Positions 3,250 through 18,377 of a stretch of 20,000 nucleotides of DNA are shown one piece after another. Source of the DNA: an uncultured virus (IMG/VR IMGVR_UViG_3300027732_002873) (taxonomy: Duplodnaviria; Heunggongvirae; Uroviricota; Caudoviricetes); the IMG/VR virus record IMGVR_UViG_3300027732_002873, positions 57,436 through 77,435 of that record, one strand, 5' to 3'. The position numbers and the translations under genes are program-made. The notes beneath the pieces were generated by a model. The model searched no databases, was not told where the DNA came from, and saw only the letters and a list, made by a program, of their open reading frames with translations. How positions within the stretch are numbered: position 1 is the first letter of the stretch; each line of letters begins with the position of its first letter.

Positions 3250-4098
3250 TTAAATGTTAATAAACTTAGTTTTGTCCCAACCACTGTCTGGCTCGTGTCC
3301 TTCATATCCTCTAGGATTGCAAAAAACACGAGTCTCACCTATAACATAATCAAAACAATAATGAGTATGTCCATGTGTCCATATTACAATCTGCGGATGA
3401 TCTAATATAAACTCTTCTAATCTGCTATGATAAGCACCATTCATAATAGACTCGTCTTTATACATCTCATGAGTGCTTAAATGACTGGGACTATGATGCC
3501 CAACTACCACGCACTTCTTGTCCTTATGTTCTGTGACAATCTGTTTAATATAACCCAAAGTCTGTGTATGGCGAACAACAGTGTCTTCGGGTTTTAAATT
3601 AGTAAAGCCTGCTTTATCTTTTTTAATAACTCTAAAGTCGTTCATCATATCACGCACAGCATGAAGTGTCAACGGATCGTGCTTGTTCATATCTGTCCAA
3701 AGAGTGCCGCCGACAAATACCACATCATCGATGACTTTCATATCTCGTTCTAGAAAATATACATTGTTGAACTTAGCACATTCTTCACGTAGATGATCCA
3801 AGCTGGCATCCCATCTTCCGTGATAGAATTCATGATTACCTGCCACATAAACTACATGCGGGAATTGAAAACTGCAACGTTTTAGGAAATCACGGAATCG
3901 CTTGGCCACGGCTTGTCTACGACCCAAGTTATCCAAATTGACATTACTGTACATACCATAACTAGACTCGGGATGGTCGTGCAGGTCCTCGGCTGTCATA
4001 ATGTCGCCGCTGAGGATGAGAACATCACAGTTCTCATCATTGGGAATATTAACGTCACTGAACTCTAAGTGTAGATCAGAGACAACTTTGATTTTCAT
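3250..4098 (-). CDS. Calcineurin-like metallophosphoesterase
   Basis: Motifs SDLH, GD, GNHE, HH, GHTH. Confidence 0.9.
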   Translation of the reverse strand: MKIKVVSDLHLEFSDVNIPNDENCDVLILSGDIMTAEDLHDHPESSYGMYSNVNLDNLGRRQAVAKRFRDFLKRCSFQFPHVVYVAGNHEFYHGRWDASLDHLREECAKFNNVYFLERDMKVIDDVVFVGGTLWTDMNKHDPLTLHAVRDMMNDFRVIKKDKAGFTNLKPEDTVVRHTQTLGYIKQIVTEHKDKKCVVVGHHSPSHLSTHEMYKDESIMNGAYHSRLEEFILDHPQIVIWTHGHTHYCFDYVIGETRVFCNPRGYEGHEPDSGWDKTKFINI

Positions 4099-4569: not shown

Positions 4570-4890
4570 TTATTTAAAATCAAACATTTTCATTTGAGTT
4601 TCATCAGCAACCACTGCTTTGCCTTTGAACCTAGCTTCACAACGTTGCTTGACTTCTTCAAAGTTACTGCCTTGTGCAATAAATTCTCGGGTATCTTTTT
4701 CGTACAAATAAAACATATTATCATGTTTTTCAATGTCGACGCGAATAAAATTATTTTTAATTTGATCAGCCATTCCTTTGATCTCTTCTTCTAAAATGAT
4801 ATTCTTAGCAGTAAGATACTTTTGCCATATTTTTATAACCAGCCAAAATACAACTACCCAAAAGATTGTATCAGTGAAGAAGTCCATCAT
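4570..4890 (-). CDS. Hypothetical protein with an N-terminal membrane anchor, 106 aa
   Basis: [14 protein letters not shown] hydrophobic stretch; ATGA coupling to clpP. Confidence 0.75.
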
Positions 4891-5507
4891 GGTCGTTTGT
4901 AAATTACTTGGTCGGCCAAACCGCTTGCCACTGCTTCTTCTGCTGATAGGAAAGTATCAAACTTCATTGTAGCAAACAGTTCGTCATATGTCTTGCCAGC
5001 GGTATTGTGACGCACATACAATTCTGTCAATCTTTTGTTGATTCGCACACTTTCCTCAAAGCTACGTTTTTGATCTTCAAACTGTAGATCCTGTACGTGA
5101 ATAGATCCACTGGTGCCACGTGTGCCCGAACTAACACGATGGATCATTGTACGACTTTCTGGTAGCACAAAACGCTTACATGGTGCACCTGCCTGCGCTA
5201 GAAATGAACCCATGCTTGCTGCCTGTCCCATGACATAAGTAGATACATCTGGTTTAATAAACTGCATAGTATCGTAGATAGCCAAGCCAGCCGTTACACT
5301 GCCGCCGGGACTGTTGATAAACATTGTAATGTCTTTACCAGCATCTTCGCTTTCAAGGAACAATAGCTGACCCACGATAAGGTTAGCCATTTGATCTTCT
5401 ACTTCGCCTTCCAACATGATGATTCGGTCTCGCATTAAGCGACTATACAAATCCATGGCACGTTCTGTATTACCCGTGCGCTCTAGAACCATTGGAACTA
5501 AACTCAT
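4887..5507 (-). CDS. clpP: ATP-dependent Clp protease proteolytic subunit
   Basis: [25 protein letters not shown], catalytic Ser in AASMG, His in MIHR, Asp in [10 protein letters not shown]. Confidence 0.95.
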
Positions 5508-14190: not shown

Positions 14191-14481
14191 TTAACGTGGT
14201 TTGTCCATGTATTCAAACATGATCCACTTAGCACGATTAATCGCTTGACGAGCATCTTCAGCTCGCATATAATCAACTTCGCCGTACTCTGTGTTAATCA
14301 TTTCTTGTGCATCGCTGAGAATGCCTGCGGCCATCATCATAGGTCCAGAAAGTTTGAAAGTAATTGAACTTTCAACTGCTTCACGCATACCCTTTTCAGT
14401 GACGCCATACATACGAACTTCACGTTTTTCTTGTTCGTTCAAAGTAATCATCTCACCCAATGTGTCGTATCTTAAACCCAT
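14191..14481 (-). CDS. Hypothetical protein, 96 aa
   Basis: ORF with SD AAGGAG after a promoter copy. Confidence 0.8.
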   Translation of the reverse strand: MGLRYDTLGEMITLNEQEKREVRMYGVTEKGMREAVESSITFKLSGPMMMAAGILSDAQEMINTEYGEVDYMRAEDARQAINRAKWIMFEYMDKPR

Positions 14482-14512
14482 TTTCGAACTCCTTTTTGTT
14501 TACTATGTATGT

Positions 14513-14553
14513 ATTATAAAGCCAAACCCAATTTGTGTCAATTAATTGGGTTT
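14513..14553 (-). promoter_or_regulatory. Early sigma70 promoter cassette copy with a 10-bp stem-loop around the -35
   Basis: TTGACA (14541-14536), N17, TATAAT (14518-14513); arms AAACCCAATT (14524-14533) and AATTGGGTTT (14544-14553). Confidence 0.88.
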
Positions 14554-14746
14554 AGAAAGCAAACGTGCGAACCCAGTCAAATCGGGTGCTTGCAGGTACC
14601 CAACGGAATTCGCTTTTCTTGCGTTCTGCTTTTTCAAAGTCGAAACAGACCATGACCCAGCCACGCTCGGTGGAAAAGGAAACAGTGTCTGCGACTCTGA
14701 CAACTTCGACAACTCTGTCGTTCATTCTTGCTACAGTAACAGTCAT
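14552..14746 (-). CDS. Hypothetical protein, 64 aa
   Basis: ORF with SD AAGGA between two promoter copies. Confidence 0.75.
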   Translation of the reverse strand: MTVTVARMNDRVVEVVRVADTVSFSTERGWVMVCFDFEKAERKKSEFRWVPASTRFDWVRTFAF

Positions 14747-14769
14747 ACTATTTCCTTTCGTAAAATAGT

Positions 14770-14798
14770 ATTATATTACCAAAATGAATTTGTGTCAA
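14770..14798 (-). promoter_or_regulatory. Early sigma70 promoter cassette copy
   Basis: TTGACA (14798-14793), N17, TATAAT (14775-14770); the GT2 stop abuts the -35. Confidence 0.88.
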
Positions 14799-15509
14799 TT
14801 AACTCCAATATTTTGAAGAGTCTAAACTGTCCCAGTATGCTTTATTGTTGCGGTTGACAAAGTTTTTTACAAGATACTTGGCCATGCCCATATAACCCAT
14901 CTTCTTGAACCTGCGACTATCTTGTCCAAAATGATGTCGGACAATTCTAAACTTTCGTGGGCTGTACTTGCGGCTCAAGAAGTAGTCTTCGCTGGTTGAA
15001 AAGTTTTCAGGGAAGCCGCCATATTCTTGAAACCTGTCTCTGCGTGTCAGCATGAAAGCTCCAACTGCAAAAGGTGAAAAATACTTCATGGCATGGTTTA
15101 TAGTATTAAAAATAATGAATCCAAGATGGGCTCTTGGATCACGATCATAACATTTGATTTTCAATCCAACTAAATCTAAATTCTTTGATTCGATAATATT
15201 AACAGCGTCTTGTATTACTGAGTCCTTGAAGAATCGAACATCAGCATCGATGAATAAGATATAAGGAGTAGTGACCATTGCGGCTCCATTGTTCTTGGCC
15301 AAAGACACAGGGCCTCCGTCGATGACTTCAACATTCAATTCGCCTTTCATTATTTCTATAACTTCTCGTGTATTGTCCGTACTACAATCTGCAATGATAA
15401 TTCTAGTATTGCCAATTGATTGCTGGCGCAAATGCACTAATAAATGTGCGATGTAGTTTTCTTCATTCTTGCAGGGTACTACAATGGTAATTTTATCACT
15501 GATTTTCAT
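14799..15509 (-). CDS. Glycosyltransferase family 2 (GT-A fold)
   Basis: ITIVVPCKNEE, IIIADCSTDNT, AKNNGA, LFIDAD (DxD), GGFPE...SEDY, SRRF. Confidence 0.9.
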   Translation of the reverse strand: MKISDKITIVVPCKNEENYIAHLLVHLRQQSIGNTRIIIADCSTDNTREVIEIMKGELNVEVIDGGPVSLAKNNGAAMVTTPYILFIDADVRFFKDSVIQDAVNIIESKNLDLVGLKIKCYDRDPRAHLGFIIFNTINHAMKYFSPFAVGAFMLTRRDRFQEYGGFPENFSTSEDYFLSRKYSPRKFRIVRHHFGQDSRRFKKMGYMGMAKYLVKNFVNRNNKAYWDSLDSSKYWS

Positions 15510-15676
15510 TTTTTTATACACCTTCCTTCAATTTTGAATTGATTAAACTTTAACCAATAAGTCATAGTTTGTAAACTTTGTTCACAGGATACCTTATCTT
15601 GGAATGTTAGTTCTATTCGTCCCGGAACATCTTTTGGATCATTGCTGTGAATTGCTAATAGGATCAATAACCACAT
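15506..15676 (-). CDS. Small hypothetical protein, 56 aa, hydrophobic N-terminus and two Cys
   Basis: Manual translation MWLLILLAIHSNDPKDVPGRIELTFQDKVSCEQSLQTMTYWLKFNQFKIEGRCIKK; SD AAGGAG; ATGA overlap with GT2. Confidence 0.7.
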   Translation of the reverse strand: MWLLILLAIHSNDPKDVPGRIELTFQDKVSCEQSLQTMTYWLKFNQFKIEGRCIKK

Positions 15677-16430
15677 TGTCTTTCTCCTTGGTCCATGTAA
15701 TGATTTCCCAGTGACCGCTGTGATGTTCTACTAAAGCAGTACAACTTTCGACCCAGTCACCATCATTCATATATTTAACCCCGTCAATGTCTTTGATTTC
15801 TGCGTGATGTATATGTCCGCAAATAACTCCGTCAAAGCCACGCTTCTTACAATAGCCAGCAAGATTTTGTTCGAACTTGAACATAAAGTCTATGGCTTTT
15901 TTTACTCTATGTTTGAGATATTTACTAAGACTAAAATACCCAAAACCAAAGCGATGGCGTATCCAATTGAACTTGCTATTAAGCGATAAAATGAAATCAT
16001 ATGCCCTGTCTCCTAAAAATGATAACCAAGGTGCCAGTCTTGTAATACCATCAAACAAATCACCATGAACAACAAGATATTTTAGTCCATCCACACCGGT
16101 GTGATTTGTTTGATTACAAATCTCAATTGATCCAAAGCTAAATCCATAGGGTATCATTGGTCTAAGAAATTCATCATGATTGCCTGCTACATATATAACT
16201 CGTGTGCCTCTTTTTGCATGTCCTAGTATTCTACGAACAACATTGGTATGACTTTGTTTCCAACGCCATTTATTTTGTTGTATTCGCCATGCATCTATTA
16301 TATCACCCACTAGATATAAGGTATCGCAGGTATTATGTTTTAAAAAGTTATTTAGTTTTTCTGCTTTACAATCTCTTGTACCTAAATGTATGTCACTGAT
16401 AAAAATACTGCGATATGTTTTAGTCGTCAT
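15639..16430 (-). CDS. plcP: PlcP-type Mn-dependent phospholipase C (LpxH2-like metallophosphoesterase)
   Basis: YRSIFISDIHLG, LVGDIIDAW, GNHDEFLR (His, not the LpxH GNRD Arg), HGDLFD, GDRAYD, GVICGHIHHA, GDWVESCTA; runs collinear with proteobacterial PlcP as recalled. Confidence 0.8.
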   Translation of the reverse strand: MTTKTYRSIFISDIHLGTRDCKAEKLNNFLKHNTCDTLYLVGDIIDAWRIQQNKWRWKQSHTNVVRRILGHAKRGTRVIYVAGNHDEFLRPMIPYGFSFGSIEICNQTNHTGVDGLKYLVVHGDLFDGITRLAPWLSFLGDRAYDFILSLNSKFNWIRHRFGFGYFSLSKYLKHRVKKAIDFMFKFEQNLAGYCKKRGFDGVICGHIHHAEIKDIDGVKYMNDGDWVESCTALVEHHSGHWEIITWTKEKDNVVIDPISNSQQ

Positions 16431-16472
16431 AGTAATATTTAACCAAAATTCGATTAGAACGCTGTTAACCAT

Positions 16473-16496
16473 AAAAAAAGAGCCCATGGGGCTCTT
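16473..16496 (-). terminator. Rho-independent terminator upstream of plcP
   Basis: AAGAGCCC-CAT-GGGCTCTT followed by a T tract on the minus strand. Confidence 0.8.
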
Positions 16497-16537
16497 AGTG
16501 TCAGCCATTTATCACATTATACGCCGCTGACCAGCGA
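16473..16537 (-). ncRNA. Candidate ~65-nt small RNA or attenuated leader
   Basis: GC-richer non-coding island between TTAAATA (16549-16543) and the terminator; competing pairings CGCTG/CAGCG and GTCAGC/GCTGAC. Confidence 0.4.
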
Positions 16538-16559
16538 TGTTATATTTAATAGAAATGCT

Positions 16560-16577
16560 ATTACAATAAGATTACAG
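16560..16577 (-). promoter_or_regulatory. Putative Pho box (PhoB binding site)
   Basis: CTGTAAT-CTTA-TTGTAAT: two 7-mers with 11-bp period, close to CTGTCAT-N4-CTGTCAT; 10 nt upstream of TTAAATA and facing plcP. Confidence 0.6.
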
Positions 16578-16595
16578 GCTAAAAGAATTTGTGCT

Positions 16596-16603
16596 AATAA
16601 ATA
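16596..16603 (+). promoter_or_regulatory. Late-type promoter motif AATAAATA
   Basis: 5 nt upstream of the SD-less ATG at 16609. Confidence 0.5.
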
Positions 16604-16608
16604 TTGGT

Positions 16609-17262
16609 ATGAAGCAGAATATAGTATTGTTCAGGCATCATCCAGAATGTTCGCAAGACTGCTGTGATGGAATCATACAATCGCTGGGTAATAATTATAA
16701 TGTCACTTTATTCTCTGAAAACGAACTTAATCAAGACTTGCTCGATAACGCCGACGTCATAGCCTTTCCCGGAGGCATTGGGGACAGTGAAAGTTATAAC
16801 AACTTTTTTAAACGAAAAAAGGAAAATCTAGTAGCAGACTTTGTTGCCGCTGGTGGATACTATCTTGGAATTTGCATGGGTGCTTATTGGGCAGGTAGCA
16901 ATTACTTTGATATTTTAGACGGCGTCGAACCTAAACAATATATCACTAGACCCAATGCAGATGTTCGTAGAAGTTATTCAACTGTGGCCACAGTGAATTG
17001 GAAAGGCCAACAAGAAAAAATGTTCTTTTATGATGGATGTGCCTTAGTCGGTGATACTAGTAAATTCAAAACTGTTGCCACTTATGCCAACGGAGATGCC
17101 ATGGCTATCATACAAAACAGAATTGGTGTAATTGGATGCCATCCAGAGAGTCAACAGTACTGGTATGAAGAGCCTAGACAATATATTAAAGAATATTGGC
17201 ATCAAGGACATCATCACAATCTCTTGTTAGAGTTTGTCAATGAATTAACCGCCCAGCATTAA
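16609..17262 (+). CDS. Class I glutamine amidotransferase-like protein (BPL_N-like)
   Basis: FPGG oxyanion motif, YLGICMGAY nucleophile elbow, CHPE His-Glu. Confidence 0.8.
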   Translation: MKQNIVLFRHHPECSQDCCDGIIQSLGNNYNVTLFSENELNQDLLDNADVIAFPGGIGDSESYNNFFKRKKENLVADFVAAGGYYLGICMGAYWAGSNYFDILDGVEPKQYITRPNADVRRSYSTVATVNWKGQQEKMFFYDGCALVGDTSKFKTVATYANGDAMAIIQNRIGVIGCHPESQQYWYEEPRQYIKEYWHQGHHHNLLLEFVNELTAQH

Positions 17263-17436
17263 CTTTGCTACTAGTGCATCTTCAGGATCGATGAAATGAA
17301 AAATCATATAATCTTCAGTAAGTTGAGTTTCGTATTTGTTGCCAGGCAATCCAAAACGTTCTAACACACTGATACATTTTTTATCCCAAAGGGGAACATC
17401 GTCTCCGGCTTGCCAATCCACTCGTACTTCAGTCAT
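17245..17436 (-). CDS. Small paralogue-family protein, 63 aa
   Basis: C-terminus FHFIDPEDALVAKLMLGG; ATG at 17436 overlaps the peptidase stop. Confidence 0.7.
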   Translation of the reverse strand: MTEVRVDWQAGDDVPLWDKKCISVLERFGLPGNKYETQLTEDYMIFHFIDPEDALVAKLMLGG

Positions 17437-18196
17437 GTACATGTACGTTGAACATTTCGTTGATGACACCGGTGCGCTGTCTGACATCTTTGTTACCCAA
17501 TGTGATCATGGCATACAGCACACCATTCTTTTCTACTAGCATGGCCAAACAGCGGCCAGCGGCGTTGGTAAATCCTGTTTTAGTCAGTACAATACTGTCA
17601 TAGGTAAAAATCTGTGGATTAGTATTCCTTAATTGAATAGTTATTGTACGTTTACTCTTTGGTGGTTGATATTTAACCGAATATATTTTGTCACTGCTAT
17701 AATATCTAATGATATCTATCCTGCGTAATATAAACAAAAACTCTTTTAGTTCATCCACTGTGCTGACATTGCCTGCCAGTAAGCCTGTGGGATCTACAAT
17801 TTTAGTTTCTTTAAACCCGTTGAGTCCGAGATGCCAATTGATGTCTGCAATAAACTTGTCATAACCTCCGGGGTGGGCGTGAGCCAATGTTTCTGCGGCT
17901 AAATTATCACTGCTCATTAACATGGCCCGCATCAATTCACTGCGTTGTAGATAAGAGCCACGAGCAAATCTGCCAGAAGATTTCCCCTGTACTTTGACTT
18001 TTTCATCTAAATCTACTAAACTCATTACAACTGCGTAAGCTGTGAATAGTTTTGTTATGCTGGCAATACTGCGGACGTCTGTGGTATTTCTGCTGTGCTC
18101 ATATCGAACGTTGTCAAAGTCGTAGAGCCCGTAGCTGTTGGCATATACGCTGTTTGCAAATAGCAAACAAAATGTTAATATAATTCGTTTAAACAA
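17429..18196 (-). CDS. D-alanyl-D-alanine carboxy/endopeptidase (peptidase S11, PBP5/PBP7-like)
   Basis: SxxK (ASITK), SxN (SDN), KTG motifs; signal peptide; TTG start at 18196 with GGAG (track start 18208). Confidence 0.9.
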   Translation of the reverse strand: MFKRIILTFCLLFANSVYANSYGLYDFDNVRYEHSRNTTDVRSIASITKLFTAYAVVMSLVDLDEKVKVQGKSSGRFARGSYLQRSELMRAMLMSSDNLAAETLAHAHPGGYDKFIADINWHLGLNGFKETKIVDPTGLLAGNVSTVDELKEFLFILRRIDIIRYYSSDKIYSVKYQPPKSKRTITIQLRNTNPQIFTYDSIVLTKTGFTNAAGRCLAMLVEKNGVLYAMITLGNKDVRQRTGVINEMFNVHVHD

Positions 18197-18377
18197 TTTC
18201 GGCTCCAAAGGTTAATTTAAATATCATCGCTTGTTCTCTGTTTGATATACTTATGTCGTAGATTGCACTGAATGGACGATTATTAGATAACTTCATTGTG
18301 TAGTGCCATCCTTTGTTTTTTAGCCAAGTGGCGGCGGCAACTGCTGGGCCATGCCCTTTAATTTTCATTGCAGTCAT
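18189..18377 (-). CDS. Small paralogue-family protein, 62 aa
   Basis: C-terminus ISNREQAMIFKLTFG; ATGA overlap. Confidence 0.7.
   Translation of the reverse strand: MTAMKIKGHGPAVAAATWLKNKGWHYTMKLSNNRPFSAIYDISISNREQAMIFKLTFGAEIV

Follow-up and report, generated by a model that had tools for sequence, protein, structure and literature searches.

A candidate lipid-renovation cassette of plcP, a 56-codon gene and a family 2 glycosyltransferase gene in the DNA of an uncultured freshwater phage

The lipid-renovation pathway of bacteria, from which the chemistry considered here is taken (PMC4796936, PMC8528852, PMC9804370), joins the phospholipase C PlcP to a glycosyltransferase. For Pseudomonas aeruginosa, Jones et al. 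assign PlcP to PA3219 and Agt1 to PA3218, the next gene downstream; their account places the characterised PlcPs at 46–47% identity to one another and gives the Pho-box consensus as CTGTCATNNNNCTGTCAT (PMC8528852). Such a box is 18 bp long, its two 7-bp direct repeats having an 11-bp period. Sebastian et al. (2016) list SAR86 among the PlcP carriers and describe, as types 3 and 5 of marine bacteria, plcP followed by putative glycosyltransferases other than Agt, one of which is the processive Pgt (Devers et al. 2011), a producer of di- and tri-glycosyl diacylglycerol (PMC4796936). The pathway itself is already known, and so are Pho-controlled phage genes. The present work concerns a cassette of plcP, a small open reading frame (ORF) and a gene for a glycosyltransferase of family 2 (GT2), found in a 20,000-nt stretch of DNA, hereafter the window, which is the final 20 kb of the 77,435-bp virus record IMGVR_UViG_3300027732_002873 (IMG/VR; Caudoviricetes). 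An earlier reading, made from the sequence only, had proposed a phage-borne, Pho-regulated module for membrane lipid remodelling at this place and knew of no characterised phage version. None was found in print, neither a phage-encoded PlcP nor a phage lipid-renovation cassette, in a literature search that had subscription journals and supplements outside its scope, and the announcement of the Pelagibacter phage Mosig (PMC7892664), a carrier of a plcP homologue, has no word starting with 'phosph', 'lipid' or 'hydrolase'.

It seemed rather likely, though well short of certain, that the three genes form a lipid-renovation cassette derived from bacteria, in which PlcP would free phosphorus and the GT2 would back-fill the membrane with glycolipid. 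In window numbering the genes are:

15639–16430, minus strand: plcP, 263 amino acids (aa) from the ATG at 16430; PlcP-type Mn-metallophosphoesterase, the predicted lipid-renovation phospholipase C
15506–15676, minus strand: small ORF, 56 aa, conserved; predicted to be translationally coupled to both neighbours
14799–15509, minus strand: GT2 gene, 236 aa, GT-A fold, DAD motif; proposed diacylglycerol glycosyltransferase

This overlapping run on the minus strand was present as the sequence-only reading had described it. An alternative ATG at 16508 would give a 289-aa form of PlcP, but the short form was preferred because the longer one reads through a terminator hairpin and because the relatives align from residue 1–6 of the short form. 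The ATG of the small ORF lies 38 nt inside the 3' end of plcP with AAGGAG 7 nt upstream, and the ATG of the GT2 gene at 15509, which is more likely the start than the GTG at 15521, as in most of the 120 homologues among the matches listed, overlaps the TGA of the small ORF as ATGA. Overlaps of this kind are the pattern that translational coupling would be expected to leave. Contigs from RNA libraries of four studies matched plcP (15869–16156 and 16009–16190), the junction of plcP and the small ORF (15592–15757) and the GT2 gene (14829–15060) with 0–1 mismatch; since DNA can be present in RNA libraries, these matches are weak evidence of expression and indicate presence in such libraries, short of proven transcription. 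Positions 16340–16630 had no contig cover in four RNA runs and were not used as evidence.

The product of plcP matched the Pfam Metallophos family (E = 2.7e-12) and is, by its sequence, a PlcP-type enzyme, a paralogue distinct from LpxH. Both LpxH equivalog models were missed, with 43.8 bits against NF003743 (cutoff 134) and 33.1 bits against TIGR01854 (cutoff 190). Two SAR86 genomes and Aliikangiella were found to carry a true LpxH (280–281 bits) elsewhere in the genome in addition to a plcP homologue (41–61 bits), and Kordiimonas and another alphaproteobacterium have the low-scoring paralogue only. A quick maximum-likelihood tree with 32 rows, built with every fourth phage locus and with near-duplicate bacterial rows dropped, split the two LpxH rows from all others with full support, and in it the jumbo-phage PlcPs made up one clade (99 in the Shimodaira–Hasegawa-like approximate likelihood-ratio test, SH-aLRT) whose bacterial sister was not resolved. 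The protein was 55.6% identical to P. aeruginosa PlcP over 243 aa (4e-96), 47.3% to the Sinorhizobium meliloti protein over 245 aa (2e-85) and about 19–26% to LpxH; given the identity among characterised PlcPs quoted above, the phage protein is as near to them as they are to one another. Model scores, genomes holding both paralogues, the tree and these identities thus upheld the earlier assignment to PlcP rather than LpxH, and a grouping with LpxH, which would have refuted that assignment, was not seen.

The P. aeruginosa homologue, taken from a PLSDB record, neighbours an adenylate/guanylate cyclase gene and directly precedes a gene labelled 'glycosyltransferase family 1', which stands where Agt1 would be; it was equated with PA3219 from these neighbours and from the published description (PMC8528852). 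The S. meliloti homologue (PLSDB, CP090106.1, 3.7 Mb) was likewise named from its neighbouring genes, being 2.8 kb from a pair of genes for a LuxR-family regulator and an acyl-homoserine lactone synthase. We take this pair to be sinR/sinI, and the homologue is presumably SMc00171 by locus tag. The record itself (L108 in our set) is labelled pSymB in PLSDB and looks like a mislabelled chromosome. The published working criterion for PlcP is a BLASTP E-value below 1e-40 to the PlcP of Phaeobacter MED193 (PMC4796936, PMC6030836); strong full-length similarity was found here, measured against the P. aeruginosa and S. meliloti proteins in place of that of MED193.

Alignment of 22 homologues showed GNHD (G83–D86) and NDGDW-E to be invariant and V-SCT nearly invariant, and the dimetal residues D13, H15, D43, N84, H85, H122, H206 and H208 were the same in 22/22 sequences. 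Calcineurin-type dimetal sites are built from the motifs DxH, GD, GNH[D/E], H and GHxH. Klebsiella pneumoniae LpxH has GNRD aligned to the GNHD of the phage protein. For an AlphaFold2 model with a predicted local distance difference test score (pLDDT) of 77, the 25 best PDB folds were all LpxH, matched from end to end, helical insertion included, at ~19% identity. In LpxH this insertion holds the acyl chains, and its retention in the PlcP model would fit a lipid substrate.

Relatives of plcP were counted in at least 597 viral stretches, of which the best 80 (IMG/VR, L018–L097) were compared. Two of the 80 end before the position after plcP. In each of the 78 informative loci a glycosyltransferase gene follows downstream, directly or past the small ORF, and it is a GT2 gene in 56 (67–100% identity), a GT4 gene in 22 and both in none. 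The GT4 of the slot has ~333 aa with the Pfam domains Glyco_transf_4 and Glycos_transf_1, as called by Pfam for 13 ORFs (11 loci) and by tblastn with one GT4 in the remainder of the 22; it is 37–41% identical to the plcP-adjacent GT4 of Kordiimonas aquimaris, where the order is plcP then GT4, and 39.8% identical to P. aeruginosa Agt1. In SAR86 a GT2 that is 59–61% identical to the phage GT2 overlaps the start of plcP, the order being GT2 then plcP, with phoX divergent next door. The linkage of plcP to a glycosyltransferase was thus conserved in 78/78 informative phage loci and in SAR86, and the counts strongly back the view that GT2 and the Agt-like GT4 are interchangeable in one slot, with the GT2 apparently standing in for Agt as the sequence-only reading had supposed. 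This position-for-position replacement of an Agt-type enzyme is the strongest argument for proposing that the GT2 glycosylates diacylglycerol. The GT4 gene is separated from plcP or the small ORF by a gene for a RimK-like ATP-grasp protein in two loci (L056:6758–7648 and L069:6904–7794).

The GT2 product matched Pfam PF00535 (E = 4e-19, 69.5 bits), which outscored the GT21 family PF13506 (29.7 bits, cutoff 21.7, residues 79–194), and its DxD motif, D88-A-D90, is invariant. The structural model was confident in the N-terminal half only, with pLDDT below 50 in the C-terminal half, and the Foldseek and PDB profile matches were generic GT-A, TarP/TarS-type, so that the acceptor is not deducible from the structure. 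No GT4 was found on the 77-kb contig of the window, whose glycosyltransferase matched GT2-type families only and not the GT-B type of Agt. Close homologues of the GT2 were rare in cells, occurring in 1 of 401 genomes sampled at class level, namely the query centre, and in 2 of 121 at order level, and a protein search in cultured phages returned weak partial matches only.

The small ORF was found in 55 of the 80 related loci with 46–100% identity, alongside either type of glycosyltransferase, and it is missing where PlcP is 11 residues shorter. Residues M1, W2, A8, D16, P18, C31, E32 and C53 are invariant and H10 is also conserved. The ORF is under purifying selection: outside the overlap with plcP the median proportion of nonsynonymous differences (pN) was 0.28 and that of synonymous differences (pS) 0.80 in 136 pairs, and the median ratio of nonsynonymous to synonymous rates (dN/dS) was 0.17 in the 51 of the 136 pairs with finite dS. 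When 1.84 billion representatives were searched with a profile, 60 clusters were recovered, nearly all of them stand-alone proteins of ~56–60 aa and none belonging to a known family. No match was obtained in Pfam, NCBIfam, PHROGs or PADLOC, the ESM Atlas gave viral hypothetical clusters only, and an ORF of Mosig that overlaps the end of plcP had no convincing alignment to the small ORF. A predicted complex of PlcP with the 56-aa protein scored 0.02, which is evidence neither way.

Pho control was assessed across the relatives with 66 distinct sequences upstream of plcP. The pattern TGTMA-N6-TGTMA was found within 120 nt of the plcP start in 36 of them, against a background of 0.0025 per 120 nt elsewhere in the same loci. 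The full pattern TGTMAY-N5-TGTMAY, followed after exactly 11 nt by TAAATA, was found in 25 of the 66, and 20 of these 25 have an in-frame ATG 4–7 nt after TAAATA. In PhoB promoters the box replaces the -35 element and stands about 10 bp upstream of the -10. The succession of box, 11 nt, TAAATA and ATG is the layout that would be expected of a leaderless mRNA with a Pho box replacing the -35, and we infer that the promoters of the family depend on PhoB. The box occurs with both types of glycosyltransferase (16/43 GT2 loci, 8/21 GT4 loci). In three loci (L079, L023 and L045) one Pho box precedes pstS and another precedes plcP, with a stem-loop element and its terminator after pstS and ahead of the second box; pstS was found within 6 kb of plcP in 5/80 loci and has the same promoter type. 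The Pelagibacter phage Mosig (L001) has a plcP homologue 50% identical to that of the window, divergent from pstS and with TTAACA-N5-TTAACA between them. Upstream of plcP in SAR86, Kordiimonas, Hyphomonas and Aliikangiella the loose regular expression gave no box, and repeats seen there by eye were not counted.

Other observations were made around these promoters. A third gene with a Pho box, 11-nt spacer and TAAATA follows the glycosyltransferase in 16/80 loci (L032:7716–8360; also L025, L030, L034, L036, L039, L048, L084); its product of ~214 aa is acidic and rich in Ala, Val and Glu, with coiled-coil-like ends, and the gene is absent from the window's contig. In two cultured marine phages, Mosig (4842–4995) and the Synechococcus phage S-SRM01 (L002), the PlcP-type genes are annotated LpxH, and the neighbours of plcP in S-SRM01 are psbA and hli genes.

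In the genome represented by the window, the region upstream of plcP has the following features:

16560–16577, minus strand: distal Pho box CTGTAAT-CTTA-TTGTAAT, read from 16577 to 16560, then 11 nt and TAAATA at 16548–16543; probable relic pstS promoter (16543–16577)
16471–16536, minus strand: stem-loop and terminator-like hairpin; stem-loop arms 16531–16526 and 16505–16500 with loop GGCGTATAATGTGATAAATG; hairpin with T-run 16496–16471
16436–16470, minus strand: plcP-proximal promoter; degenerate box GGTTAAC-AGCG-TTCTAAT at 16470–16453, 11 nt, TAAATA at 16441–16436, ATG 5 nt on

The distal site is the sole copy of TGTMAT-N5-TGTMAT in the 77,435-bp contig, whichever strand is read, and 16577–16543 would, by its sequence, fit a PhoB promoter. 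At the proximal site the repeats are lost, but the spacing and the -10 of the PhoB-promoter layout are preserved; one relative (L020) has CTGTAAT-AAAA-CTGTAAT at the position of the window's degenerate box. The distal box is built like the promoters of pstS in L079, L023 and L045, and is directly followed by the element that follows pstS there. As a pstS-type promoter here runs straight into the pstS 3'-end element, pstS seems to have been lost by deletion, and the distal box is best read as the relic promoter of that gene; no pstS was found on the 77-kb contig, itself a fragment. With pstS seemingly deleted and the proximal box decayed, it is doubtful whether plcP responds to phosphate in this genome. 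The Pho-box-like repeat noted in the sequence-only reading does exist (16577–16560), but not directly upstream of plcP, the stem-loop (16531–16500) and the hairpin (16496–16471) lying between, and the proposal of a Pho-regulated module suits the relatives, of which 36/66 have boxes, better than this genome, where a terminator-like hairpin separates plcP from the distal box and the proximal one has decayed.

The terminator-like hairpin ends with seven T in a terminator scan, and the fold of the stem-loop/terminator region was -30.2 kcal/mol (z = -2.5). When 13 distinct copies of the stem-loop element were aligned, the 6-bp stem paired in 13/13 with 5/6 pairs changed on both sides, and the copies shared the invariant loop GGCGTAYAATRKGATAA and the terminator hairpin. 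The element is located upstream of plcP in the window, after pstS in L023 and L079, after GT4 in L027, L042, L050 and L075, and after GT2 in L055 and L063; it seems to mark the ends of phosphate-linked units. An Rfam search of 14300–16800 gave no family for it and one chance snoRNA match (E = 0.32). The element may belong to 3' ends or to module boundaries, and may be a recombination point for module exchange, as has reportedly been proposed for the promoter–stem-loop cassettes of T4-type phages.

The phage content of the window was indicated by a ClpP-type prohead protease (4887–5507) with 62% identity to that of the Pseudomonas jumbo phage PA5oct and 52–55% to its counterparts in Sinorhizobium phage Phosso and Agrobacterium phage Atu_ph07. 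The stretch belongs to lake and freshwater metagenomes, with 14 DNA runs each holding at least half of its words, and the IMG/VR contigs with close relatives of plcP are lake jumbo-phage DNA of up to 345–524 kb. All three genes are open and 99–100% identical in two other 111-kb contigs. Among species genomes, the closest matches were metagenome-assembled genomes labelled Haliscomenobacter, Polynucleobacter and Fischerella (L004, L005, L006), with the plcP–glycosyltransferase cassette at 76–86% identity; these contigs are probably mis-binned jumbo-phage DNA, because the labels are mutually inconsistent and the surrounding genes are of phage type. A nucleotide search against cultured phages gave a single match of 154 nt, to Mosig.

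In the mechanism proposed, PlcP, as a Mn-type enzyme with an LpxH-like lipid-binding cap, would cleave host glycerophospholipids to diacylglycerol and a phospho-headgroup, and the membrane phosphorus so freed would go to nucleotide synthesis and the replication of a very large genome. The co-translated GT2 would glycosylate the diacylglycerol to a phosphorus-free glycolipid, doing the job of the Agt-like GT4 of sister phages and bacteria, and this back-fill would keep the membrane intact until lysis; the 56-aa protein would be an accessory. In the phage family, host PhoB would drive the cassette and the neighbouring pstS through Pho-box promoters when phosphate is short, with a leaderless plcP mRNA. 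We infer the substrates, the products and the benefit to the phage by analogy with the bacterial pathway. A wider proposal may be put forward more tentatively: the carriers of the cassette could be an abundant and cosmopolitan group of lake jumbo phages with a Pho regulon of their own (pstS, leaderless plcP, the 56-aa gene, a glycosyltransferase and sometimes the 214-aa protein) that remodels the host membrane from phospholipid to glycolipid under phosphorus scarcity and supplies the phosphorus so released to the replication of ~350-kb genomes, the GT2 being a diacylglycerol glycosyltransferase of a new and compact class that otherwise occurs in SAR86 alone and the 56-aa protein a new component of the pathway.

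Several points weigh against these proposals. The loose pattern left 30/66 relatives without a box, the proximal Pho box in the window is without both TGT cores, and the terminator-like hairpin parts plcP from the intact distal box. The quick tree has long branches and few bacterial rows. The acceptor proposed for the GT2 was derived only from the genomic neighbourhood, the PDB matches of the protein are transferases of wall teichoic acid and polysaccharide that cover the nucleotide-binding half only, and both Mosig and S-SRM01 have plcP without an adjoining glycosyltransferase.

The acceptor bears most directly on an alternative in which PlcP scavenges phosphorus and the GT2 acts on something else, such as polyprenyl phosphate, lipopolysaccharide (LPS) or a surface glycan, for instance to change a receptor against superinfection. 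Weak PHROGs matches (7e-6, confined to residues 10–67) to families of GtrB-like O-antigen conversion, the TarS/TarP-type wall-polymer transferases as best PDB matches in sequence and fold, and the label 'involved in cell wall biosynthesis' given to relatives by one source all speak for it. These matches are, however, confined to the generic nucleotide-binding half, a membrane-spanning C-terminus of GtrB type is not predicted, the gene is in an operon with plcP in 56 phage loci and SAR86, and the Agt-like GT4 takes the same slot in 22 loci, never together with it; another acceptor was thus considered unlikely. That the metallophosphoesterase should be a true LpxH, with the GT2 modifying lipid A or LPS synthesis, is hardly credible, even though phage records and one source annotate many relatives as LpxH or UDP-2,3-diacylglucosamine hydrolase or diphosphatase, lpxH is counted among the LPS genes in virome papers and the nearest solved fold is LpxH. 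The protein scored far under both equivalog cutoffs and has GNHD in place of the GNRD of K. pneumoniae LpxH, its identity is 47–56% to characterised-type PlcP against about 19–26% to LpxH, its family includes a paralogue beside genuine LpxH in three gammaproteobacterial genomes and the sole match in two alphaproteobacteria, and its gene is associated with pstS and Pho boxes.

The decay seen upstream of plcP would also suit a cassette that is a passenger in this genome, with intact genes whose regulation or use was lost together with pstS and the proximal Pho box. The degenerate proximal box, the relic promoter and terminator, and the lack of pstS on the 77-kb contig, though that is a fragment, fit such a history; yet the three frames are open and 99–100% identical in two 111-kb contigs, the -10 element and the leaderless spacing are retained, contigs with 0–1 mismatch occur in the RNA libraries of four studies and the small ORF is under purifying selection, which makes it quite improbable. 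Still less probable is a role of PlcP in lysis or host takeover through degradation of the inner membrane, apart from any phosphorus economy: a phospholipase can damage membranes, and Mosig and S-SRM01 have plcP alone, but the glycosyltransferase partner in 78/78 informative loci, the Pho-box promoters common with pstS and the adjacency to pstS in Mosig would be left unexplained. The lipid-renovation cassette remained the preferred reading of the three genes.

Other genes of the window were recorded beside the cassette. A second metallophosphoesterase gene (3250–4098, minus strand; phrog_1649, E = 8.8e-52) is unrelated to plcP, and a phage-borne PbpG-like D-alanyl-D-alanine endopeptidase is encoded at 17429–18208 on the minus strand (NF008668, 132 bits, below the 294-bit cutoff; Peptidase_S11, 2e-29). 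On the plus strand at 16591–17262, divergent from the relic Pho box and adjoining it, lies a class-I glutamine-amidotransferase-like or BPL_N-like gene, homologues of which occur within 6 kb of plcP in 25/80 related loci, with no fixed side or orientation. The perfect sigma-70 consensus TTGACA-17-TATAAT is present twice, at 14770–14798 and 14513–14541 on the minus strand, in the common context AATTGACACAAAT, and each copy precedes a small ORF with a ribosome-binding site (64 aa at 14552–14746 and 96 aa at 14191–14481). These two promoters look like phage early promoters and show the plcP cassette to be a unit apart.

Phosphorus is limiting in many lakes, and membrane phospholipid is a large internal store of it. 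By arithmetic from genome size, each copy of a 350-kb phage genome holds ~700,000 phosphate groups. Lipid renovation, if true, would be a third phosphorus route for phages, besides uptake (pstS, phoA) and the breakdown of host DNA. A 2025 study (PMC12282109) describes lipid remodelling in phosphate-limited infected cells as little known. Infected cells could account for some of the PlcP signal and glycolipid pools of phosphorus-poor waters, and since the homologues examined here are PlcP-type, viral 'lpxH' counted as an LPS gene in virome surveys needs re-checking. The alternation of GT2 and GT4 offers a natural experiment for assigning function to an uncharacterised GT2 subfamily.

Of the described systems, the nearest is the bacterial PlcP–Agt pathway, known from S. 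meliloti PlcP, the plcP–agt genes of Phaeobacter MED193 and SAR11 HTCC7211, and PA3219–PA3218/PA0842 of P. aeruginosa (PMC4796936, PMC8528852). The phage cassette resembles it in the 47–56% identity of PlcP, in the glycosyltransferase next downstream, in the Pho-box promoters of the phage family and in the true Agt-like GT4 of sister phages. It differs in being phage-encoded, in having a 236-aa GT2 rather than a GT4, in the inserted 56-aa ORF and in the leaderless layout of plcP. With the plcP–Pgt arrangement it shares a downstream glycosyltransferase other than Agt, and the phage GT2 passes the Pfam cutoff for GT21, the family of Pgt; in contrast, the phage GT2 is much shorter than Pgt and has close homologues in SAR86 only among the genomes searched. 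LpxH is alike in fold, in the helical insertion over the dimetal core and in supplying the best PDB matches, whereas the phage protein is ~19% identical to it, scores under the model cutoffs, has GNHD rather than GNRD and is a separate paralogue. Among phage genes, pstS and phoA of cyanophages are reportedly under the control of host PhoB, and the likeness lies in a phage gene behind a host-type Pho box and in pstS adjoining plcP in relatives and in Mosig; the difference is that plcP would mine the internal membrane-lipid store rather than import phosphate. Cyanophages are also said to encode lipid desaturases, which like the present cassette would edit the lipids of the host membrane, though in acyl-chain saturation and not in head group or phosphorus content.

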